Below, piece after piece: positions 6,120 through 53,833 of a stretch of 64,000 nucleotides of DNA. The DNA lies in the NCBI GenBank assembly GCA_016235865.1, contig JACRIK010000018.1, positions 66,891 through 130,890 of the forward strand. Reading direction: 5' to 3'. Position 1 is the first letter of the stretch. Each line of letters starts with the position of its first letter. The translations under genes and the position numbers were made by a program. This stretch comes from Planctomycetota bacterium. Its GTDB lineage: Bacteria; Planctomycetota; MHYJ01; JACQXL01. A model generated the notes under the pieces. It had not been told where the DNA came from and made no database searches. It was given only the letters and a program-made list of their open reading frames with translations.

Positions 6120-6368
6120 GTGCACGAATGGGGATTGACGGCTGATGTGGTGGAAGAGGTTAAGAAACAAGCCGCTAAGAATGATATTGTTAAGGTAACC
6201 AAGGTTCAGATTGGCCTGGGGAAAAAGGCCGACCTGAGCGAAAGAGCATTCCGGACCTGCTTTAAGGTCCTGGCCAAGGAAACTATTATGGAAAAGGCGC
6301 GGCTGGCTTTTACCAAAAGACCGGACCATATTATCATCGTGAATACTATCGAGGGTAAGCAAGAGTGA
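6120..6368 (+). CDS. HypA-like protein, N-terminal Ni-binding domain only (82 aa, lacks the Zn-finger). GTG start.
   Basis: GTG at 6120 with AAGGAGG 6 nt upstream. Begins MHE... and contains QAAKNDIVKVTKV, like HypA MHE...QAAKHGAKRVT. There are no CxxC pairs. The stop overlaps the next gene's start (GTGA). Confidence 0.55.
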   Translation: MHEWGLTADVVEEVKKQAAKNDIVKVTKVQIGLGKKADLSERAFRTCFKVLAKETIMEKARLAFTKRPDHIIIVNTIEGKQE

Positions 6369-7744
6369 AGACGGCACAATCCATTATTAATGAAGAAGCT
6401 TTAAGCAGGATGCTCTCTGAAAGCCAGGATTCTGCGCCGGCGGCCATCCGCCGTATCATAGCCAAGGCCCGCCTTAAAAAGGGATTAACCGTAGAAGAAG
6501 TCGCCTACCTGGTTAATATTAAGGATAAATCGTTATTAAAGGAACTCTTTGAGACGGCCGCCCTGATTAAGCAGGAGATTTACGGTGAGCGGTTGGTTTT
6601 CTTTGCGCCATTATACGTCTCTGATTACTGCGTCAATGACTGCGCATATTGCAATTTCCATACCCGGAATAAGGAATTATCGCGCCGGCGGCTGACCCTT
6701 GACGAAGTAGCCCAGCAGGCCGAATTTATCATCAATCACGGCCATAAACGGATTCTTCTTGAATTAGGCGAAGACCCGGCCCATAATGAGATTGATTATG
6801 TGGTTGACGTGATTGACCGGATATACTCGGTCCGGACTCCCAAGGGCAATATCCGGCGTGTCAATGTCAATATCGCGGCCACTACCGTGGATGATTACCG
6901 GAAACTAAAGTCCGCCAAAATCGGCACCTATCAGCTCTTCCAGGAAACCTACCACCGACCGACCTATGAGAAACTGCACCAAGGCCCCAAGGCCGATTAT
7001 GACCGCCAGATAACCGCCCATACCCGGGCCTTCGAGGCCGGGGTTGACGATGTGGGCCTGGGTGTTCTCTTCGGTCTTTATGACTGGCGTTTTGAGACGC
7101 TGGGCCTGGTGGCGCACGCCTTGTATCTGGATCAGACCTACGGAGTAGGTCCGCATACTATTTCCGTGCCGAGAATCTGCCCGGCCAGCAGCGTGGATTA
7201 TAAACCGGAATACCCGGTCTCTGACAATGATTTCCTGAAGCTTATTGCTATATTGCGTCTGGCCGTGCCCTATACTGGGATGATTATCTCCACCCGTGAA
7301 AGTGCTGAGATACGAAAGATTGCTTTTAAGATAGGCATTTCCCAGGCCAGCGCCGGCTCGGTCACCACCACCGGCGGCTACGGCAAGGCATCACTGCAGG
7401 CCCAGTTCACGGTCCACGACAACCGTTCTTTGGAAGAGGTTATCCGTGAAGTGATTAAGGACAAGATGATACCCAGTTTCTGCACGGCCTGTTACCGGAG
7501 CGGCCGGACCGGCGAACGGTTTATGAAACTATCCAAGCCCGGTGAAATCCACAAATTCTGCCGGCCTAATGCGCTGCTGACCTTTGCCGAATACCTCTAT
7601 GATTGCACCACCAACGGCATTACGGAATCAGGAATGCAGCTCATCGTGGATTATCTGGAGCAGATAGAAGACGAGCCGATTCGCGCCGAAACCCGCCGGC
7701 GCCTGGCCGATATCAAGAACGGCAAACGCGATTTGTATTTTTAG
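6365..7744 (+). CDS. hydG: HydG-type radical SAM tyrosine lyase ([FeFe]-hydrogenase maturase family)
   Basis: CVNDCAYC radical-SAM motif. IRRVNVNIAATTVDDYRKLKSAKIGTYQLFQETYH is HydG-like. C-terminal CTAC-x22-C (CX2CX22C) auxiliary-cluster motif is present, which ThiH lacks. Confidence 0.8.
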   Translation: MKTAQSIINEEALSRMLSESQDSAPAAIRRIIAKARLKKGLTVEEVAYLVNIKDKSLLKELFETAALIKQEIYGERLVFFAPLYVSDYCVNDCAYCNFHTRNKELSRRRLTLDEVAQQAEFIINHGHKRILLELGEDPAHNEIDYVVDVIDRIYSVRTPKGNIRRVNVNIAATTVDDYRKLKSAKIGTYQLFQETYHRPTYEKLHQGPKADYDRQITAHTRAFEAGVDDVGLGVLFGLYDWRFETLGLVAHALYLDQTYGVGPHTISVPRICPASSVDYKPEYPVSDNDFLKLIAILRLAVPYTGMIISTRESAEIRKIAFKIGISQASAGSVTTTGGYGKASLQAQFTVHDNRSLEEVIREVIKDKMIPSFCTACYRSGRTGERFMKLSKPGEIHKFCRPNALLTFAEYLYDCTTNGITESGMQLIVDYLEQIEDEPIRAETRRRLADIKNGKRDLYF

Positions 7745-8045
7745 TCGCGGTTTGAACGCAATTAATTACTGCGACTTATCCTGAGCAAAGCGAATGGTTA
7801 GGGCGAATTACAGCCCCTTATCCTGCATCAGCGGGGTCCCGATGCATATCGGGGTTAAGCCATTTAGAATTCTTTCAGTATAAACCCCACAAAGGGATAA
7901 ACCCTAAATTCCACCTTGGTTCCTGTCATAATCCGAGCATAATTATCATGTCTTTTTTATATAACTCATTATGCTATAGAATATTGTATAAAATATTACT
8001 CTGCAAAACTAGGGGGAGGGGGTATGGTGGGGGGTAGTACCCTTG

Positions 8046-8520: not shown

Positions 8521-8651
8521 TTTTATTGACCCCGTTAGAGATGTTTAATATACTAAATGATTAGTAGTATCAGGATATTTAGTAATGGTGATTAGTAACA
8601 AGATACTGGTAATACGGTCATCCCGATGGAATGACCTATCTCTAACGGGGT
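8521..8651. repeat. Long inverted repeat ttgaccccgttagagat / atctctaacggggttgac flanking about 100 bp of AT-rich DNA, just upstream of the 8682 gene
   Basis: The 17-bp arms are perfect reverse complements. The motif tatctctaacgggg recurs at 39883. Confidence 0.7.
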
Positions 8652-8681: not shown

Positions 8682-10052
8682 ATGAAGAGAAAACTGTTGA
8701 TTATGGGCGCGGCCGGCAAGGATTTCCACGTCTTTAATACCCTCTACCGGGATAATCCGGACTATGAGGTGGTCTGCTTTACCGCTACCCAGATACCTAA
8801 TATTGATAACCGGATGTATCCGACAGAACTGGCCGGTTCAATGTATCCCAAGGGAATCCAGATTAAGCCGGAGGCCATGTTGGTTGACCTGATTAAAGAG
8901 CATAAGGTTCAGGAGGTGGTGTTTGCTTATAGCGACGTTTCTTACGAATATATTGATGGCAAGAAAAAGATGGTTCAGGCCGCCGGGGCGGAGTTTACCC
9001 TGCTGGACCCGGTTAAGGTGATGCTCAAGTCCACCAAGCCGGTCATCGCGGTCTGCGCGGTCCGGACCGGCGCCGGCAAAAGCCCGGCTAGCCGTCGGGT
9101 GGTTGATATCCTCAAGAAATACAACAAGAAGACCGCGGTGGTGCGCCATCCCATGCCCTACGGCGACCTGGTCAAGAGCACGGTCCAGCGCTTTGCCACC
9201 TTTGAAGACCTTATCAAATACGATTGCACCATTGAGGAGCGTGAGGAATACGAGCCGCATCTCCAAAAAGGCGCTTTGGTCTATGCCGGTGTGGATTACG
9301 AGAAGATTTTGCGCGAGGTGGAAAAGGAAGCGGATGTGGTTATTTGGGACGGCGGCAATAACGATACGCCATTCTACAAGCCGGACCTACACATCACGAT
9401 TTGCGACCCGCTCCGGCCGGGACACGAACTCTCCTATTACCCGGGCCGGGAGAATTTCGAGATGGCTGATGTTCTGATTATAAATAAGGTGGATACGGCC
9501 AAGACCGAGGATGTGGAGTCCATCCTCAAGAATGCTAAGCAGTATAATCCCAATGCCCAGATAATTATGGCTAATTCGCCGGTCTTTGTTTCTGACTCGG
9601 ATAAGATTAAGGGGAAAAAGGTCCTGGTTATAGAGGACGGCCCGACCGTGACGCACGGCGAGATGGGCTATGGTGCTGGTTTTATCGCGGCTAAGAAATA
9701 CGGCGTGGCTGAGATTGTTGACCCCAGACCCTATGCTAGCCAGGGTATCAAAGAGGTATTTGCGAAGTATCCCAAGACCACCCAGGTTCTGCCGGCCGTG
9801 GGTTATAGTTCCAGGCAGATTAAAGATCTTGAAGAAACCATTGAGAATTGTCCCTGCGACGTGGTTATTATTGCCACCCCGATAAACCTGGCCCGGATAG
9901 TCAAGATAAACAAGCCCTGGGTCCAGGTGACCTATGAGATAGAAGAGATTTCTAAGCCACGGTTAGGGGATATTATGGCGCAGAAATTCGGCTGGCAGGG
10001 CCAGAGCCAATTCGGAAGCCGGCCCGGGATGCAGATGCTGGCGAGACCGTAA
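8682..10052 (+). CDS. COG2403-family P-loop protein (predicted GTPase, cyclic 2,3-diphosphoglycerate synthetase-like)
   Basis: 456 aa with an internal Walker A (AVRTGAGKS). Overall similarity to the archaeal CPGS / COG2403 family is recalled from memory and was not searched. Confidence 0.4.
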   Translation: MKRKLLIMGAAGKDFHVFNTLYRDNPDYEVVCFTATQIPNIDNRMYPTELAGSMYPKGIQIKPEAMLVDLIKEHKVQEVVFAYSDVSYEYIDGKKKMVQAAGAEFTLLDPVKVMLKSTKPVIAVCAVRTGAGKSPASRRVVDILKKYNKKTAVVRHPMPYGDLVKSTVQRFATFEDLIKYDCTIEEREEYEPHLQKGALVYAGVDYEKILREVEKEADVVIWDGGNNDTPFYKPDLHITICDPLRPGHELSYYPGRENFEMADVLIINKVDTAKTEDVESILKNAKQYNPNAQIIMANSPVFVSDSDKIKGKKVLVIEDGPTVTHGEMGYGAGFIAAKKYGVAEIVDPRPYASQGIKEVFAKYPKTTQVLPAVGYSSRQIKDLEETIENCPCDVVIIATPINLARIVKINKPWVQVTYEIEEISKPRLGDIMAQKFGWQGQSQFGSRPGMQMLARP

Positions 10053-24597: not shown

Positions 24598-25137
24598 TTA
24601 TGTATTCGTAGCAACCGGTTTTTCCGACTGCGTATTACTCGGCGCTAAAATCAGGGTTAGACGATGACCTTCCCTGGAGATATTCTTATCTACCTTGGCC
24701 ACACCCTTTAATTCGTCCCTGATACGTTCCATCAACTTAAATCCGATTTCCTTGTGGGCGATTTCCCGGCCCTTGAAGAAGAGATTGAAAAGCACCCGGT
24801 CGCCTTTCTTCAGAAAACCTTTGGCTTGGTTCACCCGCACCATAAGATCGTGTTCTTCGGTTATCGGCCGTAGCCTGAGTTCTTTTAAGCGTCCCTGATG
24901 ATGTTGTTTCTTTGCTTTCTGTTCTTTCTTATGCTCCTCGTATTTATATTTGCTGTAACTCATTATCTTGCAAACCGGTGGCGCGGCATCAGGTGAGACC
25001 TCAACCAGGTCAAATCCTTTTTCCAGCGCCATTTTCAGGGCATCAGCCGTGGGCATAATCCCTAGATGCGTGCCGGTCTCGTCAATTACTCGGATGGTTT
25101 TTATTCTGATCCGGTCGTTTTTTCTTAGGTCTTTAAT
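24598..25137 (-). CDS. infC: Translation initiation factor IF-3, with a non-AUG (ATT) start
   Basis: The frame is open upstream of the first ATG (25056) and encodes IKDLRKNDRIRIKTIRVIDETGTHLGI, the IF-3 N-domain. A TAA lies just upstream. SD AGAGAGG precedes ATT at 25135-25137. Confidence 0.75.
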   Translation of the reverse strand: MKDLRKNDRIRIKTIRVIDETGTHLGIMPTADALKMALEKGFDLVEVSPDAAPPVCKIMSYSKYKYEEHKKEQKAKKQHHQGRLKELRLRPITEEHDLMVRVNQAKGFLKKGDRVLFNLFFKGREIAHKEIGFKLMERIRDELKGVAKVDKNISREGHRLTLILAPSNTQSEKPVATNT

Positions 25138-25224
25138 GATTTCACCTCTCTTTTCTTACCCGCTGTTAACGACAAGGGAGTGTTGCAGCGAGTTAGATCC
25201 CGCCGAAAGGCGGGATTTTCATGA

Positions 25225-26958: not shown

Positions 26959-27129
26959 TATGTTCTACAATAACCTCATTTCTTTTCCTACAGTATGGCA
27001 AATTTCCAGCACCTTGTCAAGTTCCTGGTCGGTGAGTGTTGCCATATAACCCCGCTCCGATGTTTATCGGGCGGGATAACTCGCTGTAACGCCCTGGCGC
27101 CTACAGCGCCATGACTAACAGCGAGAAAT

Positions 27130-28311
27130 TTATAGTAACTTCATCTCCTTGCCGACAGATTGACAAACCTCTAATACTTTATCTAATTCTTTATCCGTGT
27201 GGGTGGCCATATAACTGGTGCGAATCAGCGCGCCGTCCGGTGGTACAGCCGGCGAAATTACCGGGTTGCTGAATATGCCTCGCTCAAATAATTGTTTCCA
27301 GAACCCGAAAGTGACCATATCCTCGCCGAGGATTAAAGGCACGATCGGCGTCTGGGTCGGGCCGATATTGAATCCCAGCTTGCGGTATTCCCGATGCATT
27401 TTATGGGTAATCTCCCAGAGCCGCTGGCGGCGCTGGGGCTCGGTTTTCATAATCTTTAGTGTCGCCAGGACCGTGGCTACGGCCGCCGGCGGCATACTGG
27501 CTGAGAATATCAGGGCCCGGGCATGGTGCTTGATGTAACTGATGACTTTTTCCTCGCCGACAATGAATCCGCCCAGCGAGGCGAATGACTTGCTGAAGGT
27601 GCCCATCACCAAATCAACGTCATTTTCCAGATTGAAATGTTCCGCGCAGCCGCGGCCGTGCTCGCCCATCACCCCGATGCCATGCGCGTCGTCCACCATC
27701 AGCCGGCACTTGTATTTCTTCTTGAGTTTGGCTATTTCAGGCAGGTTGGCCAGGTCGCCTTCCATGCTGAATACGCCGTCTACCACAATCAGGGCATTGG
27801 ACGGAGCGGGCAGTTCGGCCAGAATCCGTTCCAGGTCGGCCATATCGTTATGTTTGTATTTGATGGTCTTGCCGAAGGACAGCCGGCAGCCGTCCACGAT
27901 ACTGGCATGGTCGCCCCGGTCAACCAGGACGACATCGTCCTTACCGACCACGGTGGAAATGACGCCCTGGTTGGTCTGGAATCCGGTGGAGAAAATCAGC
28001 GCCGCTTCCTTGCGCATAAACGAAGCCAGTTCCCGCTCTAATTCCTCGTGGATATCGAGTGTCCCGTTCAGGAATCGCGAGCCGGTGCAGCCCGAACCGT
28101 ATTTCTCCACGGCCTTGATGGCCGCTTCCTTGACCCGCTGGTCCTGGGTCAGGCCCAGGTAGTTATTAGAGCCGATCATGATCATCTTCCGGCCGTCAAT
28201 AAACACCTCGGTATCCGCCCCGGACTGGATGGCCTTGAAATAGGGGTAGTAGCCCTGTTCCTTGGCTTCTTTAACGCGGGTATAATTGTAACACTTGGAA
28301 AATATTTCCAT
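27130..28311 (-). CDS. kbl: 2-amino-3-ketobutyrate CoA ligase (glycine C-acetyltransferase)
   Basis: Alpha-oxoamine synthase family. GSNNYLGL, a PLP-lysine region, and full-length Kbl-like similarity. Confidence 0.8.
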   Translation of the reverse strand: MEIFSKCYNYTRVKEAKEQGYYPYFKAIQSGADTEVFIDGRKMIMIGSNNYLGLTQDQRVKEAAIKAVEKYGSGCTGSRFLNGTLDIHEELERELASFMRKEAALIFSTGFQTNQGVISTVVGKDDVVLVDRGDHASIVDGCRLSFGKTIKYKHNDMADLERILAELPAPSNALIVVDGVFSMEGDLANLPEIAKLKKKYKCRLMVDDAHGIGVMGEHGRGCAEHFNLENDVDLVMGTFSKSFASLGGFIVGEEKVISYIKHHARALIFSASMPPAAVATVLATLKIMKTEPQRRQRLWEITHKMHREYRKLGFNIGPTQTPIVPLILGEDMVTFGFWKQLFERGIFSNPVISPAVPPDGALIRTSYMATHTDKELDKVLEVCQSVGKEMKLL

Positions 28312-33350: not shown

Positions 33351-33730
33351 GGGGGGATACCCCCATATATCCGGGGGGATATCCCCAGGGTATCTAATAG
33401 ATACCCCCTACACTACCAGTAGATACCCCCCTACCTACTACTGGATACCCCGGTACCTACTAATAGATACCCCCATACCTACTGACGGATATCCCCCTAC
33501 CTACTAATGGATACCCCCGTACCTACTGATAGATATACCCCTACCTACCAATGGATACCCCCTATAGTAGTAACGGATATACCCCTGCCTACTGACGGAT
33601 ACCCCCGGTAGTAGTAACGGATACCCCCCGACCTAGCAGTGGATACCCCCATACCTACTGATGGATATACCCCTACCTACTATGGGATACCCCCTGAGGT
33701 AGTAGTGGATACCCACCTACCTGCTACCTG
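33351..33730. repeat. Tandem array, about 22-bp unit GGATACCCCCNTACCTACTRAY, about 17 copies. Some units carry the inverted core ggtagtagta.
   Basis: Direct reading. Units are contiguous with no unique spacers. Confidence 0.85.
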
Positions 33731-33785: not shown

Positions 33786-34010
33786 TAATAACTCTTGGCG
33801 CTGCTTATATACTGTGCATTTTGGTAAGTTTACAAGCGGGGATGTTTGTTTTGATGAGAAATGCCGCTTGTTTGTTAATCAGATGCCACTTCTTTTTCAA
33901 TCAAATACCGGCTCTTATATACTGTGCATTTTGGCAAGTTGACAAGCGGCGCTGGCTGTCTTGATTAGAAATGCCGTCTGTTCGTAGTAAAAATGGCGCT
34001 TCATTTGGTT
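33786..34010. repeat. Two direct copies (about 85% identical) of a roughly 75-bp segment cttatatactgtgcattttggYaagttKacaagcgg...gaaatgccg
   Basis: Direct reading. The listed ORF 33743..33964 spans the repeats and is probably spurious. Confidence 0.7.
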
Positions 34011-34146: not shown

Positions 34147-34243
34147 CCCGACAAAAACTGTCGGGATAAGGGTCTCTAATTCACTAAGTTCACTCCGCTC
34201 CGGTAGGTGCTCGTGGTCACGCTGCGCTTAGTTCAAAGAGTCC

Positions 34244-34254
<11 letters not shown>
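34147..34254 (+). repeat. Structured REP-like element copy C2: hairpin cccgacAAAAActgtcggg, ATAA, a long insert, then CTAACCTAACC. It overlaps the hutU stop codon.
   Basis: Hairpin and ATAA are identical to C3. CTAAC at 34244-34248 contains the reverse-strand TAG of hutU. Confidence 0.55.
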
Positions 34255-35890
<1,636 letters not shown>

Positions 35891-36063: not shown

Positions 36064-37587
36064 TTATTTTAACTTTCCCACTACCTTTTCCACGGCTTCG
36101 AGTATCTCGCCGGATTTCACCAGCGCTTTCATGGCGTTGTGGTCGTCGAACAGCGGCCGGTCCACTTCCAGGTGCGCCACGTGTTTGCGGATGATTTCCC
36201 GGGCCTTGAGCGAGCCCTTGCCGGGCGTGAATTCTCTGAAATCCAGGGCCTGGGCCGCGGCCATTAATTCGATGCCGATGACGCCGTAGGCATTATCAAG
36301 AATCTGGGTGTTTTTCAGGGCGGTGTTCATGCCCATTGATACAAAATCCTCCTGGTCAGCCGCGGCCGGGATGGACATAATGGATGCCGGGGCGCTCAGG
36401 ATACGCTGCTCGACGATGAGCGAGTCGGCGGTGTATTGCGAGAGCATCAGGCCTGAATAAAATCCCGGTTCGTGGGCCAGGAAGTCGGGCAGTCCCTGGC
36501 TCAGGGCCGGGTTGGTCAGCCGGTTTAAGCGGCGCTCGGAGATGACGCAGACCATGGTGACAGCCGCGCCGGCCATATCCATGGGTAGCGCCACCGGCGA
36601 GCCCTGGAAGTTGGCGCCGGTCAGGGTCAGTTTCAGTTCCGGAACGAATATCGGGTTGTCGCCCACGCCGTTGAGTTCTATTTCGACCTGGGAGCGGGCG
36701 TAGGCAATGGCGTCGCGGGCCGCGCCGCTGACCTGCGGGGTGGAGCGCATCGAGTAGGCGTCCTGGACCTTGGTTTTCATCTTGCCGGTGGTCAGGTCCG
36801 AGCCCTCGAACATACGGCGCATGTTATCGGCCGAGTCAACCGCGCCTTTGAATCCGCGCAGTTCGTGGAGTTTGCCGGTGTAGGGTTTCATGTTGCCCAG
36901 GAGCGCCTCGATGGTCATGGCAGCGGCGATTTCAGACTGCTTGATTAGACGTTCCATGTCGAAGATGTTCAGGGCCGAGATGGCGGTCAGCAGGTTAGAG
37001 CCGTTGATGGCGGCCAGGCCGTCCCGGGCCTGCAGTCCGGGAATCGGGATGCCGGCCTTTTCCATGGCCGTCTTGCCCGGTAATATTTCGCCTTTATAAA
37101 ATGCCTTGCCTTCACCCATGAGCAGCAGAGCTGCCTGGGCCATCGGGGCCAGGTCGCCGGATGCGCCGACCGAGCCCTTGGCGCAAACGACCGGGGTGAC
37201 GCCCTTATTGAGCATGGCCACCATGGTTAGCGTAATCTCGGGACGGCAGCCGGAGTTGCCGTGGGCGTGGACGTTGATGCGCCCGGCCAGCGCCGCCCGG
37301 ACGTGTTCGATGGGCGCCGGCTCGCCGATGCCGGCCGCGTGGTTGTAAACCAGATAACGCTGGAATTCCTTGACCTGTTCGTCGTTGAGCATCTTCTCGG
37401 AGAATTCGCCGATGCCGGTGTTGGTGCCGTACATGACCTCTTTTTTGGCGAGTTTGTCTTCGAGCATGGCCCGGCAGACCTTGATACGCTCCAGGGCAAC
37501 GGGCGCCAGTTCCACTTTCTCATTGTGCCGGGCTATCTTGACCAGGTCTTCAATGGTTAAATGAGAGCCGTCTAATACAACTGCCAT
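36064..37587 (-). CDS. hutH: Histidine ammonia-lyase
   Basis: MIO-forming SVGASGDL motif and full-length HAL similarity. Confidence 0.9.
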   Translation of the reverse strand: MAVVLDGSHLTIEDLVKIARHNEKVELAPVALERIKVCRAMLEDKLAKKEVMYGTNTGIGEFSEKMLNDEQVKEFQRYLVYNHAAGIGEPAPIEHVRAALAGRINVHAHGNSGCRPEITLTMVAMLNKGVTPVVCAKGSVGASGDLAPMAQAALLLMGEGKAFYKGEILPGKTAMEKAGIPIPGLQARDGLAAINGSNLLTAISALNIFDMERLIKQSEIAAAMTIEALLGNMKPYTGKLHELRGFKGAVDSADNMRRMFEGSDLTTGKMKTKVQDAYSMRSTPQVSGAARDAIAYARSQVEIELNGVGDNPIFVPELKLTLTGANFQGSPVALPMDMAGAAVTMVCVISERRLNRLTNPALSQGLPDFLAHEPGFYSGLMLSQYTADSLIVEQRILSAPASIMSIPAAADQEDFVSMGMNTALKNTQILDNAYGVIGIELMAAAQALDFREFTPGKGSLKAREIIRKHVAHLEVDRPLFDDHNAMKALVKSGEILEAVEKVVGKLK

Positions 37588-37596
37588 CTGGTGCTC

Positions 37597-37640
37597 ACTT
37601 TCTTAGAGCCAGTTATCCCGACAGGGAGTTACTGGGTCTT
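37597..37640 (-). repeat. REP-like element copy C4 (minus orientation: ccctgtcgggATAActggctct), immediately upstream of the hutH start
   Basis: The tcgggataactggct string is shared with C1. Confidence 0.45.
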
Positions 37641-37665
37641 AGATGGCGCCACTGGCGCCATTCAT

Positions 37666-37695: not shown

Positions 37696-37894
37696 GGTGT
37701 GGGGGTTACCAAGAGGGTCGTTAATATACCTGTGATAAATAAACTAATCAAGAAAAATAGAGAGAAAATAATGGCCGGGCAGTGACAAGCGGATAAAATA
37801 AATATTTTACTTGACATTTTCGTGTAATAGGGATATATTAAATTATATTAAATATCAAAACCGAGAAGAGATACCCCGCCATGCGGCGGGGTCT

Positions 37895-37978
37895 CCCGAT
37901 GAGTAATCGGGATAAGTCGCTGTCCCTAACGGGACTCCTGTGGTCGTAACGACCAAAGGTCTAACAGCGACTAATAAG
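37895..37978 (+). repeat. Structured REP-like element copy C5: hairpin cccgatGAGTAatcggg, ATAA, stem gtcgctgt...CTAAC...agcgac, TAATAAG. It sits in the 5' leader of the OMP gene.
   Basis: Same architecture as C1 and C3 with a different but self-complementary outer stem. Flanked by GC hairpins ccccgccatgcggcgggg and gcggcgctaaggcgccgc. Confidence 0.6.
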
Positions 37979-38042
37979 AGTCTGTAACGTCGTGCGGCGC
38001 TAAGGCGCCGCCCAACTAACAGTCTCTAAGAGGAGCAAAAAG

Positions 38043-39506
38043 ATGAAGAACACCAGATGGATAGCAGCGGTTGTCGCAATCATAATGGTAAGCAGTTTAG
38101 CGGTCAATGCCGAGGAATGGTCGATATACGGGCCGCGGGCCGAGGGCATGGGCGGGGCCGGGGTAGCCACGGCGGACGGCGCCACGGCGCATTACTGGAA
38201 TCCGGGCGCCACCACCAAGAATGAGAAATCCGGCCTTTATATTACCGGCGGATTGGTAACCTCAGCCGAAGGCGATGTTGTTGCCTCTTTGGATAAGGTT
38301 GCCCAAAAGGGCGCCGGGATTGACTGGAACACGGTGATGGGCAAGGTCAACGGCGGAACACCGCTTACCGTGACCGAGGCGCAGCAGGTTATCGGATTCT
38401 TTTCCACTGCGGCAACTGAATTAAACCAGCCCGGCCAGGGTTTCCTGGTTAATGGCAGCGGTGGATTATCGTTCGCCGTGGGGAGTTGGACCGTCTTCGG
38501 AAATGGATTTATGAATATGAACCTGGACCCGGTGGGCGATGACCAGAACCTGGCTGTCAACTCCGGTCCATCTGCCATTACCAATACGGTCGGTAGCGTT
38601 TCTTTAGGTTCTCCGGCCAATAGCACACTGGCATCCAATATTGCTTCACAGTCCTGGTGGATAGCCGGCGCGGGCGATGCAGCGCTCCAGGCAGATAACT
38701 TTGTTTATCTGGCTGAGCAGGGCGGCGCCGATACCTCAGACCCGGAAGTTCAGCAGACCATAATGATTATGGCCCAGAACCTGGCCGGCGGCACAGCCAC
38801 TGTCCAGAATAACGAGACCGGCGTCATTATCAACGGACTTATCGTCAGCGAATTCGGCGCTTCGCATAGCTGGGATTTTGTGGATGTTATCGGTCAGACG
38901 TTGTCCGTGGGGGTTAATCTTAAATTGATGCAGGGCCAGACCTACTATCAGGAAATCAAATACAGCGACTTGGAAGGCACCGATAAGCTAATGAATAATG
39001 TTAATAGCAAGGAAAACACCAAGTCGTCAACCGCCTTTGGTATTGATGCGGGCGCCTTGGTATCGTTTTCAGACGTTCTCAAGGGCGGTCTGGTTATCAG
39101 GAATCTCAACAGTCCTAAATTTTCCTATGCCGGTAGAGGCGATGCGGTATTGGACCCGCAGATAAGGGCGGGTGTGGCCATGAATCTGGGGATGATTACC
39201 CTGGCGGCTGATTACGATGTGACCAAGAACAAATCCAGTTTATTAAAGGGTTATGAGTCGCAGATGTTCGGGTTAGGCGCGGAGGTGAGTTTAATCGGGA
39301 CCCTGAAACTGCGCATGGGCACATACCAGAATATGGCATCGGTGGCTCCCTCAGCGGTAATGACCTATGGCCTGGGGTTCCATCTGCTGTTCCTTGACCT
39401 GGACCTGGCCGGAGCGATGGCCAGTAAAAATGTGAAGGTTGAGGATTCCGGCAGTGAAATACCTGCCAGTTTTGGCGGTTCAGCGGCAATAGCGTTGAGG
39501 TTCTAA
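38043..39506 (+). CDS. Secreted outer-membrane beta-barrel protein (TraF/FadL-like)
   Basis: Signal peptide MKNTRWIAAVVAIIMVSSLAVNA. YGPRAEGMGGAGVATADGATAHYWNPGA motif. C-terminal ...AIALRF. Confidence 0.5.
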   Translation: MKNTRWIAAVVAIIMVSSLAVNAEEWSIYGPRAEGMGGAGVATADGATAHYWNPGATTKNEKSGLYITGGLVTSAEGDVVASLDKVAQKGAGIDWNTVMGKVNGGTPLTVTEAQQVIGFFSTAATELNQPGQGFLVNGSGGLSFAVGSWTVFGNGFMNMNLDPVGDDQNLAVNSGPSAITNTVGSVSLGSPANSTLASNIASQSWWIAGAGDAALQADNFVYLAEQGGADTSDPEVQQTIMIMAQNLAGGTATVQNNETGVIINGLIVSEFGASHSWDFVDVIGQTLSVGVNLKLMQGQTYYQEIKYSDLEGTDKLMNNVNSKENTKSSTAFGIDAGALVSFSDVLKGGLVIRNLNSPKFSYAGRGDAVLDPQIRAGVAMNLGMITLAADYDVTKNKSSLLKGYESQMFGLGAEVSLIGTLKLRMGTYQNMASVAPSAVMTYGLGFHLLFLDLDLAGAMASKNVKVEDSGSEIPASFGGSAAIALRF

Positions 39507-39566
39507 ATAAATATTATTAAACAACCCCGTACCTACCTAAAGGATGGGTGCGGGGTTGTTCTATTT

Positions 39567-39782
39567 ATGCGCAGTATTATCATATTTCTGGTTCGGGCTT
39601 ACCAATACGGTATCTCGCCTTTGCATCCGCCGGTCTGCCGTTTCCAGCCGACCTGTTCGGAGTATTTCATCCAGGCCGTGGACAAGAAGGGGATATTGCT
39701 GGGCGTATTTTATGGCTTGCGGCGCCTGTTAAGATGCCATCCTTTAGGCGGCCATGGCTATGACCCGGTGGACCCCAGTTAG
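39567..39782 (+). CDS. yidD: Membrane protein insertion efficiency factor YidD
   Basis: [26 protein letters not shown] is a canonical YidD. Confidence 0.85.
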
Positions 39783-39924: not shown

Positions 39925-39997
39925 CCCGACAAAAACTGTCGGGATAAGAACCAGTAAGTCCCCCGAAGGCTTTCGGGGTCCTAACTGGTTCTAATGG
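39925..39997 (+). repeat. Structured REP-like element copy C3: hairpin cccgacAAAAActgtcggg, ATAA, stem gaaccagt...(inner hairpin cccccgaaggctttcggggt)...CTAAC...tggttc, TAATGG. It abuts the nrdR stop codon.
   Basis: Direct reading. The outer stem is compensatory relative to C1 and C5. Confidence 0.6.
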
Positions 39998-40447
39998 TTA
40001 TTTGTGGATGTTCTGAAGTTCCTTCATGAACTGCCGGGCATCCTTGAATTCCCGATAGACCGAGGCAAATCTGACATAGGCTACGTGGTCCAGCGATTTT
40101 AGTTCCTTCATTATCAGTTCGCCGATTTCCTTGGCCGGCACCTCGCGGTCGAATTTGTCGTAGATGGCCCGTTCAATCCGGCTCAGTACCTCTTTTATTT
40201 TCTCGGTTGAGACCGGCCTTTTTTCGCAGGCCTTCATCAGACCGGATACGATCTTTTCGTGGTTAAAGGGCTGGCGGGTGCCGTCTTTCTTGACGACTCT
40301 TAATGAGGCTTCTTCGCGCTTTTCATAGGTGGTATAACGGCGCTTACAGGCCAGGCATTTCCGCCGGCGCCGAATCACAAAGCCTTCGTCCGAGGAACGT
40401 GAATTGATGACCTGGTCGTTGTCTTTCTTGCAAAATGGGCAACGCAT
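39998..40447 (-). CDS. nrdR: Transcriptional repressor NrdR
   Basis: MRCPFCKKDNDQVINSRSSDEGFVIRRRRKCLACKRRYTTYE zinc ribbon plus ATP-cone. Confidence 0.9.
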   Translation of the reverse strand: MRCPFCKKDNDQVINSRSSDEGFVIRRRRKCLACKRRYTTYEKREEASLRVVKKDGTRQPFNHEKIVSGLMKACEKRPVSTEKIKEVLSRIERAIYDKFDREVPAKEIGELIMKELKSLDHVAYVRFASVYREFKDARQFMKELQNIHK

Positions 40448-52363: not shown

Positions 52364-53737
52364 TTAGTTCTTGGACTTGTCCGTGTTCTCTTTATTTTCC
52401 TTGTTGGTATCGCCCTGGCCCTTGCCCTGTCCAGCGCTGTCGCGGCCTTCGCCTTTGCCGCCGTCTCTGACGCCGTTATTATCATTGTCCTTGGGAACGG
52501 TTCCGGTTACATCCATACTACCCTGGGACGTATTGGGCTTGCGGTTCTTACCTTCATTCCTTAGTTTCGGGTTGCAAATCGGGCAGGTTCTGGGATTATG
52601 CGGCGGTCTCAGGCGGGCATCTTTATCGTTACCCTGTCCGGAATTACCGTCACCGGGCCGGTCTACCTTGCCGCTATTGGCATCATCGCGGTTGTCGCCT
52701 CTGCGTTTGTTGTCAGATGAGCCGGAACTGCCTCCCTGCGGTTGTTTGGGCTGTGTTTTCGGCCTGTCGACGCCTTCTCTCTTGGGCGGCAGTTTTCTGT
52801 CGTTACCCTGTCCGGAATTGCCGTCACCGGGCCGGTCTATCTTGCCGCTCGTGGAATCGTCGCGGTTGTCTCCGGCGCCCCATTTACGCTTGGGCGGAAA
52901 TTTATTATCGCGCCTGTCCTCGCGGCGGTCACGGACATCCTCGCGTTTGTCTTTGGCGTCCTCACGTCTGTCCTTGACATCTTCGCGATTGTCGCGCCTG
53001 TCTTCTTTTCTATCCCAGGCATCTTCTTTTTTATCGCGTCGGTCTTCGGCCCTATCCCATTTGCCGCCATCTGTTTTGCTGTCACGTTTATCTTCTGCTC
53101 TGTCGCGTTTGTCCTCGCGGCGGTCTTTGATATCCTCGCGTTGATCGCGTTTGTCTTCGCGTTTGTCTTTGATATCCTCGCGGTTATTGCGCTGGTCTTC
53201 TTTCCGGTCCCGGACATCCTCGCGCCGGTCCGCGCCCCATTTACGCCTTAAGGAAGAATTATCCTTCCTGTTTTCATCGCCTTGACCTTTGCCCTGGCCT
53301 ATGCCATTGCGTCCTTCGCCCTGGCCGCGGTCCCGGACTCCGGAGTTATCATTATCTTTGGGATTGGTAGTCTGCGGAGGTTGTCGCTTGGGCGATTCTT
53401 TCTTGGGCGGCAGATGCCGCTTGCAAAGTGGGCAGGTCCTGGGGTCATGCTTGGGTGGTTTTACCCCGGGTTTTTTATCATCGCCCTGTCCGGAATTGCC
53501 GTCGCCCGGTCGGTCAACCTTACCGCTCTTGGCGTCATCGCGGTTATCGCCTTTACGGTCGTTGGCTGATGGTGCATTCTTGTTGGGAGTGTTTTTATTG
53601 CCGGCCTTGGGTCCGTTGTTGTTTCCGCCGGCCTTGGCCGGCGCCCTGCCAGGTTCAGCGTACAACGAGGCAACTAAACTGACTAACAGCATTACTGCCA
53701 GCAGATAGCCCATTCCCTTTCTTATGTTCTGCCACAT
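52364..53737 (-). CDS. Secreted hyper-charged low-complexity repeat protein (RED[IV]KDRREDKRD x about 14; flanking GKVDRPGDGNSGQG and PRTCPxC modules)
   Basis: Signal peptide MWQNIRKGMGYLLAVMLLVSLVASLYA. The internal repeat architecture is visible in the translation. Confidence 0.5.
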   Translation of the reverse strand: MWQNIRKGMGYLLAVMLLVSLVASLYAEPGRAPAKAGGNNNGPKAGNKNTPNKNAPSANDRKGDNRDDAKSGKVDRPGDGNSGQGDDKKPGVKPPKHDPRTCPLCKRHLPPKKESPKRQPPQTTNPKDNDNSGVRDRGQGEGRNGIGQGKGQGDENRKDNSSLRRKWGADRREDVRDRKEDQRNNREDIKDKREDKRDQREDIKDRREDKRDRAEDKRDSKTDGGKWDRAEDRRDKKEDAWDRKEDRRDNREDVKDRREDAKDKREDVRDRREDRRDNKFPPKRKWGAGDNRDDSTSGKIDRPGDGNSGQGNDRKLPPKREGVDRPKTQPKQPQGGSSGSSDNKRRGDNRDDANSGKVDRPGDGNSGQGNDKDARLRPPHNPRTCPICNPKLRNEGKNRKPNTSQGSMDVTGTVPKDNDNNGVRDGGKGEGRDSAGQGKGQGDTNKENKENTDKSKN

Positions 53738-53833
53738 ATCCCTGCTCCTTTCGTTAGAGTCCGTTGGACCCCGAAAGCATTCGGGGAACTTACGGACTCT
53801 TACGTCCCGCCGTATGGCGGGACATCTTGATTA

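Follow-up and report, generated by a model that had tools for sequence, protein, structure and literature searches.

The hairpin element that begins at position 39925 of the 64,000-nt stretch of Planctomycetota DNA analysed here (the window) raises the question of what kind of family it belongs to: a structured RNA kept for its function in transcripts, or a palindromic repeat kept and spread as DNA. An earlier reading made from the letters of the window (the sequence-only reading) had listed five copies sharing one 5′ hairpin, had taken the compensatory changes in their outer stems as selection on RNA structure, and had left a miniature mobile element as the alternative. All five are indeed family members, although a covariance model raises the number of copies in the window to at least 10 (nine loci and the second module of the array at 37895; Table 1), or about one per 6 kb. 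The flagged hairpins are genuine members of an abundant family of small palindromic repeats in uncultured groundwater Planctomycetota. The family is previously undescribed; it is lineage-restricted, high-copy, mosaic and extragenic.

The 5′ hairpin, P1, defines the clearest copies. The pattern CCCGA-N7/9-TCGGGATAA has exactly four matches in the window, all on the plus strand (1380, 34147, 37895 and 39925), where 100 shuffles gave an expectation of 0. Each of these four exact-P1 copies folds into two hairpins, the 5′ hairpin and then a longer one, with z scores of -3.6 to -6.7 against shuffles (for the flagged copy, MFE -39.5 kcal/mol and z -6.2), and the two-hairpin shape proposed earlier is thereby borne out. 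The statement that all five original copies share P1 holds for these four but not for the reverse copy (C3), which had been mis-parsed: the 'tcgggataa' taken for its P1 is the 3′ half of the inner hairpin UCCC-UGUC-GGGA followed by UAA, and its true 5′ hairpin is GGCGCC-AGU-GGCGCC. By strand of the contig, the nine window copies divide into five plus and four minus.

Table 1. Copies of the repeat in the window, with their parts and neighbouring features (scores are covariance-model bits)
Feature	Positions	Strand	Parts	Score (bits)	Neighbourhood
C1	1380..1439	+	P1 1380-1398; AUAA; P2 CTGGCTG/CAGCCAG; inner block GCTCCTTCGTCGC; UAA 1437-1439	82.4	Fills the spacer from a MerR-like gene (stop 1374) to a 64-aa ORF; SD GGAG at 1440, ATG 1451
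Copy	7736..7857	-		28.2	Antisense to flanking genes; 3′ C-UAA junction is the TAG stop (7742-7744) of a radical-SAM gene, 6365-7744 (+)
Copy	25151..25218	-	5′ hairpin CCCGCC-UUUC-GGCGGG	37.1	Fills the thrS-infC spacer; UAA followed by GAGAGG, then the infC AUU start at 25137
Copy	27047..27133	+		40.2	Antisense to both neighbours; 3′ end overlaps the stop of an aminotransferase gene, 27130-28311 (-)
C2	34147..34247	+	P1 34147-34165; UAA 34245-34247	49.9	C34244 + UA is the TAG stop of convergent hutU (34244-35890, minus; urocanase by Pfam)
C2 P2	34170-34176 / 34238-34244	+	GGGTCTC/GAGTCCC; long inner insert, 61 nt
C3 (reverse copy)	37603..37660	-	Hairpin UGGCGCC-AGU-GGCGCCA 37660-37644; UCUAA; P2 GACCCAG/CTGGCTC; P3 UCCC-UGUC-GGGA; UAA 37605-37603	27.6 (match 37598-37663)	Precedes hutH (36064-37587, minus); 15 nt from UAA to ATG 37587
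C4 array	37895..38029	+	P1 37895-37911; AUAA		5′ leader of a TraF_2-like outer-membrane protein gene; promoter-like TTGACA-17-TATATT upstream, 37811-37839; SD GAGGAG at 38030, ATG at 38043
C4 module a	37916-37971	+	GTCGCTG...CAGCGAC, then UAAUAA
C4 module b	37978-38026	+	GAGTCTG...CAGTCTC, then UAA 38027-38029
C5 (flagged copy)	39925..39994	+	P1 39925-39943; AUAA 39944-39947	67.5	142 nt past yidD (39567-39782); 3 nt from the convergent nrdR stop (39998-40000); nrdR 39998-40447, minus
C5 P2	39948-39954 / 39985-39991	+	GAACCAG/CTGGTTC; UAAG 39955-39958 after the 5′ strand
C5 inner and end	39959-39994	+	P3 hairpin 39959-39981; UAA 39982-39984; terminal UAA 39992-39994
Copy	53749..53825	-	5′ hairpin CCCGCC-AUAC-GGCGGG; P2 GAGTCCG/CGGACTC	30.3	UAAC, then GAAAGGAG, then the ATG of gene 52364-53737 (-)

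Some neighbour assignments of the sequence-only reading survive this parsing and others change hands. C1 does end just before the SD of the ORF at 1451, and C2 does supply the TAG stop of hutU. The gene at 38043, which C5 had been said to precede, is instead preceded by the 37895 copy and its second module (37978-38029); it encodes the TraF_2-like outer-membrane protein, and hutH, formerly paired with C4, has the reverse copy before it. The nrdR stop, attributed to C3, is adjoined by C5.

Wider searches, which had been proposed together with the original list, placed the window copies in a larger set. In a scan of one genome per species the exact P1 pattern was found at 22 loci, only in five Planctomycetota MAGs, and it gave 38 matches in metagenome contigs from groundwater and other sources. 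A covariance model built from a 22-copy alignment returned 125 matches (about 50 from the window together with the first loci, and a further 73 from 40 additional loci, 38 of which came from the metagenome scan). One hundred of these are non-identical, drawn from related Planctomycetota MAGs and groundwater metagenomes. The unit reads in the order (UAAY) – P1 – AUAA – P2 5′ strand (7 nt) – UAAC – P3 – YUAA – P2 3′ strand – UAA. P1 (CCCGAY-AAAAACU-RUCGGG) is conserved in sequence, whereas P2 is a 7-bp stem around an exchangeable and variable insert, P3, of 15-77 nt. UAA flanks every helix strand; the AUAA, UAAC, YUAA and UAA elements are near-invariant, and TAAY precedes P1 in about half of the copies. 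Some copies carry extra nested hairpins in the P1 loop and in P3.

Copies are mostly single. An inverted facing pair was seen only in L052, where two copies of opposite orientation (2138-2280) face each other and overlap by 22 nt. In L002 (34-161) modules stand in tandem in a way that allows alternative pairings: a P2 3′ strand can also pair with the P2 5′ strand of the module after it and thereby enclose P1.

That the outer stems differ between copies and remain complementary was confirmed in both folds and alignments. In the 22-copy alignment 98.2% of cells were paired, both sides had changed in six of seven P2 pairs, and the covariation score was 0.459, compared with 0.111 for shuffles and no more than 0.07 for slid partners; the covariance-model check suggested earlier thus finds stems that do covary. 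With 82 distinct copies, an alignment that leans towards structure through having been fitted to the covariance model, 96.7% of cells were paired, covariation was 0.499 (slid-partner controls at most 0.05) and double changes occurred in all seven P2 pairs. There were 36 distinct P2 stems among the 92 copies that could be parsed.

The P2 covariation is genuine, yet it does not look like the product of RNA-level selection. Mismatches in P2 comprised 9 G·U, 7 A·C and 19 others, G·U accounted for about 3% of pairs on either strand, and the folding energies of the sense and antisense strands differed by a mean of 0.2 kcal/mol (Wilcoxon p = 0.49). Covariation is not proof of selection on RNA here, because G·U is no commoner than A·C and both strands fold equally well, and because about a quarter of the first 53 covariance-model matches are antisense to their neighbours and the neighbouring genes are functionally unrelated. 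On this point the sequence-only reading does not stand. The copies are near-perfect DNA palindromes with Watson-Crick stems on both strands; the outermost P2 pairs vary most and an inner C-W-G is best conserved. For RNA discovery this is a caution, as palindromic DNA repeats can yield very strong compensatory-change statistics without RNA selection, and counting G·U against A·C together with folding both strands reveals the DNA-palindrome origin of such covariation.

We compared syntenic loci, fetched through NrdR homologues, from relatives with 85-97% NrdR identity. C5 is absent at the orthologous site in L028 (93% NrdR identity), L023 and L025, the empty site in L028 reading ggccggataTAAttattt, and L027, L029 and L030 lack the entire yidD-nrdR spacer. 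The leader of the outer-membrane protein gene holds no element in L029 (where it reads …gagaaTAAGGAGtataaaaATG), L025 or L023, one module in L028, and two modules with extra inserts in the window. Past the stop of the same gene, the window and L027 have an intrinsic terminator (in the window, a terminator-like hairpin with a U-run at 39520-39567, between this gene and yidD, which is conserved in L027). Antisense copies stand at that place in four relatives: with P2 = GAGCCAG in L028 and L023, and with P2 = GATACTG and differing P3 inserts in L029 and L025. C3 is absent from the hutH leaders of L023 and L025, while L029 and the window share the flanks of this leader and differ in the hairpins between them. 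Upstream of a 1064-aa gene, copies are good in L023 and L029, decayed in L025 and L027, and lacking in the window. Identical inner blocks recur within different P2 stems, and the inner insert of L023 (10842-10950) is, as read by eye rather than by computed alignment, about 93% identical to a non-orthologous one in L015 (5480-5591). Copies are thus gained, lost, swapped and decaying between relatives, which shows DNA-level spread or exchange, with the direction of change taken by parsimony from a few loci and no insertion or excision event directly seen. Such turnover is the behaviour of dispersed, exchanging repeats and not of a conserved gene-specific regulator. The REP or miniature mobile element offered earlier as an alternative fits this presence and absence, the swaps and decay at orthologous sites, and the inner blocks shared across stems best of all. 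Turnover is also fast enough for the copies to be usable as strain-level markers.

Placement is non-random, as had been noticed in the window, and follows a sharp rule. Copies are always intergenic, and it is the 3′ (P2′-UAA) end that is sharply anchored, not the P1 end. An SD and start codon lie 9-19 nt past the 3′ UAA in 44 of the 100 non-identical copies and in 30 of the 49 copies defined by P1 alone; the second figure therefore shows that SD adjacency is not a bias from the tail of the covariance model. A tRNA end lies within 12 nt of the 3′ end in 13 of 100 copies and of the P1 side in none, and inward-facing pairs of copies bracket four tRNAs. Six of eight independent convergent genes stop in the junction TAG formed by the last C of P2′ and UA; in the outer-membrane protein gene, TAA has become TAG at the junction with the C-terminal Phe unchanged. 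Upstream stop codons lie 1 to 30 nt before P1. Sense copies are in excess by about 2:1.

Comparison of filled and empty sites suggests how this rule arises. Five of six informative comparisons show one TAA in the empty site, precisely where the element has its 3′ UAA, and in two clean pairs (C5 against L028, and L025:688 against the window) the 5′ junction lacks a TAA. The SD is part of the gene and not, as had been supposed, of the element: copies that do not precede genes end in UAA and unrelated sequence. The filled and empty sites are most simply read as insertion directly 5′ of a TAA that was already there, which on the other strand is 3′ of TTA, and without duplication. The extended SD UAAGGAGG (UAAGGAG) pairs with the 3′ end of 16S rRNA. 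Because TAAs are typical of extended SDs, of TTAA stop contexts and of AT-rich tRNA flanks, copies would come to lie at gene boundaries and to face genes and tRNAs from both sides, and their orientation would follow the neighbouring gene on both strands because the element inserts at such TAAs. The grammar of the family is unusual in its nested hairpins punctuated by UAA and in a 3′ end set on a TAA at SD, stop-codon and tRNA boundaries. From this positional rule follow testable questions on how the element inserts (cleavage next to TTA/TAA) and on what a natural hairpin immediately 5′ of an SD does.

Known families gave no counterpart. Rfam had no match to the window at the gathering score and nothing overlapping the elements at E ≤ 10 between 37800 and 40050, in line with the earlier proposal of a new family without an Rfam counterpart. 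No similarity to the elements was found in plasmid or phage collections, no P1 match in IMG/VR viral contigs, and nothing relevant in the literature on planctomycete REP or MITE elements. No enzyme that could mobilise the elements turned up: in about 0.55 Mb of fragmentary MAG loci, neither tblastn with approximate IS200 TnpA and E. coli RayT queries nor a scan for HUH..Y motifs gave a match, both being weak tests. A 407-aa ORF beside an element in L029, considered as a transposase, proved to be HEAT-repeat-like.

Several other identities were tried and set aside. Intrinsic termination, part of the role first suggested, does not suit the elements: no copy has a U-tract, the tails being UAA followed by purine-rich or arbitrary sequence, and no terminator-like site between 37550 and 40100 coincides with any copy. 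As integron attC sites the core sequences (R″ RYYYAAC, R′ GTTRRRY) would have to be complementary and are not; CUAAC faces GUAAC, not GTTAG, and the junctions read UAA on the same strand at both arms. An independent small RNA at 39925 has no promoter-like site upstream.

What, then, maintains the family? Coincidental similarity, local duplication or ordinary intrinsic terminators would have in their favour only the hairpin shape. Against four observed P1 matches where none is expected, about 100 non-identical copies in independent assemblies, and stems with no U-tract behind them, this can be given practically no weight. A dedicated cis-acting RNA leader module, in which transcribed P1-P2-P3 is selected for an RNA function, deserves more consideration. 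It might act as a 5′ stabiliser, as a block to 3′ exonucleases or as a ribosome-loading platform stacked on UAAGGAGG, with P1 perhaps bound by a lineage-specific protein. It would account for the 44-61% of copies whose end lies 9-19 nt ahead of a start codon and leaves the SD unpaired, for the retention of the P1 sequence and loop in at least five species, and for an orientation that tracks the neighbouring gene on both strands of the window; the downstream genes, as read from their N-termini, include many that are secreted, lipoprotein, pilin-like or rubredoxin-like and probably highly expressed. We nevertheless consider it unlikely. The elements are not conserved at orthologous leaders at 85-93% NrdR identity and some are visibly decaying, they show neither tolerance of G·U nor a strand-specific structure, the SD is part of the gene, the target genes form no coherent functional set, and about a quarter of the first 53 matches either lie antisense to both neighbours or flank tRNAs.

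Spread as DNA could take more than one form. A MITE of the DDE type (IS5/Harbinger-like), mobilised by a transposase, would insert with duplication of TAA and build the mosaic by repeated nesting into TAA-containing loops. The TAA on both sides of every module, the TAAY 5′ of P1 in about half of the copies and the nested extra hairpins in P1 loops and P3 all agree with it. The two cleanest filled and empty pairs, which lack a 5′ TAA, do not, nor do the outer ends of P2, which vary where terminal repeats bound by a transposase should be conserved. Empty P2 hairpins (TAA-N7-TAA-N7′-TAA) were not found, so that nested insertion with TAA duplication was rejected, and no transposase was found nearby. 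We regard this form as improbable. Our preferred reading, to which we assign a probability of about 0.62, is that of a REP/BIME- or PATE-type family whose palindromic repeats are mosaic, extragenic, high-copy and lineage-restricted, and the elements look like REP-type selfish or mosaic DNA rather than dedicated regulatory RNA.

The family spreads or is exchanged as DNA, and its copies lie with the P2′-UAA end on a TAA already found in empty sites. Under the REP/PATE reading, mobilisation may be by a single-strand enzyme of the HUH/Y1 type (IS200/IS605 or RAYT-like), which is suggested because insertion adjoins a fixed trinucleotide without duplication and uses hairpins, or it may proceed by conversion from one repeat to another. 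Either this way of spreading or the template-switch correction of quasi-palindromes, and not RNA selection, is probably what keeps the stems perfectly complementary. Some observations tell against such mobilisation: the weak enzyme search over about 0.55 Mb turned up no transposase, the 5:4 strand split of the window copies does not fit a strict IS200/IS605 lagging-strand bias, and the variability of the outermost P2 pairs is unlike that of terminal inverted repeats.

Sense copies would join 5′ UTRs and intercistronic spacers and so set a stable double hairpin directly 5′ of an unpaired SD. Judging from these positions, it is plausible that this double hairpin protects or insulates the mRNA, as E. 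coli REPs and 5′ stem-loops do, and the stabiliser or translation-module role of the sequence-only reading would be a reasonable consequence of where the copies lie. Selection for a benefit at the RNA level could also lie behind the sense excess and the narrow range of distances to start codons. In a more speculative extension, which we hold to be a long shot, the elements would not be merely selfish: a domesticated single-strand DNA enzyme would install and exchange cassettes of hairpins at the first TAA of the extended SD (UAAGGAGG). Were this true, the clade would have a programmable and rapidly evolving layer of leader hairpins, in which a dedicated protein binds P1 and the hairpins tune both mRNA stability and ribosome loading across hundreds of genes, as well as the processing of tRNA flanks.

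Among described systems, IS200/IS605-derived PATEs and IS608-type insertion resemble the planctomycete family in having hairpins at both ends and insertion beside a fixed short target without duplication. The IS608 target is TTAC, and that of the planctomycete family is TTA on the complementary strand. PATEs differ in that, for the planctomycete family, no TnpA or TnpB was found, the window shows no strand bias, and the target-proximal hairpin varies greatly. BOX elements of Streptococcus pneumoniae and Correia/NEMIS elements of Neisseria are, like the planctomycete family, modular or mosaic intergenic repeats with stable folds that alter the UTRs of their neighbours. Their sequences are unrelated to it; the BOX modules A, B and C are conserved in sequence, and Correia elements, unlike the planctomycete copies, show a TA duplication together with terminal repeats that are conserved. 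In cyanobacteria, the very small dispersed repeats (SDR) resemble the planctomycete elements in being tiny palindromic and mobile insertions, nested within one another and within hairpins. They belong to another phylum and have other sequences, and to our knowledge neither TAA anchoring nor SD adjacency has been described for them. SDR are cited in PMC3116915. The REP/BIME/REPIN elements of Enterobacteria and Pseudomonas are mobilised by RAYT transposases (PMC3116915). They share with the planctomycete family a short, high-copy, strictly extragenic, imperfectly palindromic form, transcription within operons, occurrence in mosaics and clusters, insertion into or beside one another, and hairpin potential kept despite sequence drift. 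In contrast to them, the planctomycete unit has UAA(Y) punctuation in place of a GTAG tag, is bipartite (a conserved and a variable nested hairpin) rather than an inverted REP doublet, and occupies mostly 5′ leaders adjoining the SD instead of 3′ ends; a weak search of roughly 0.55 Mb of fragmentary loci gave no RAYT for it.

Other features of the window and its relatives were observed alongside the repeats. Just upstream of C2, in an 880-nt gene-free stretch, a 22-nt unit (consensus CTAATAGATACCCCCTACCTA) is repeated 15 times in tandem at 33394-33726. Behind it come two direct repeats, each about 50 nt long, near 33793 and 33912, and this region resembles iterons or a protein-binding array. 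A motif, (A)TCTCTAACGGGGT, recurs at 8529 (minus), 8641 (plus) and 39886 (plus) of the window and also in L023, L025, L028 and 10 other loci. At 8641 it directly adjoins a TTGACA hexamer, with the ATG at 8682 about 35 nt further on. Within the yidD-nrdR spacer the motif belongs to a stretch of some 140 nt that the window, L023, L025 and L028 share and that L027, L029 and L030 lack; the motif may represent a promoter/operator box or a second dispersed element. The infC gene (24598-25137, minus) has an apparent AUU start at 25137, 13 nt past the UAA of the element before it, and in the reading frame from this AUU the IF3_N domain begins at residue 7. Two relatives, L029 (3607-4830) and L023 (3703-5093), carry on the minus strand an additional HEAT-repeat-like ORF, inserted between the 1064-aa gene and a 650-aa HEAT-repeat gene; the window, L025 and L027 lack it.
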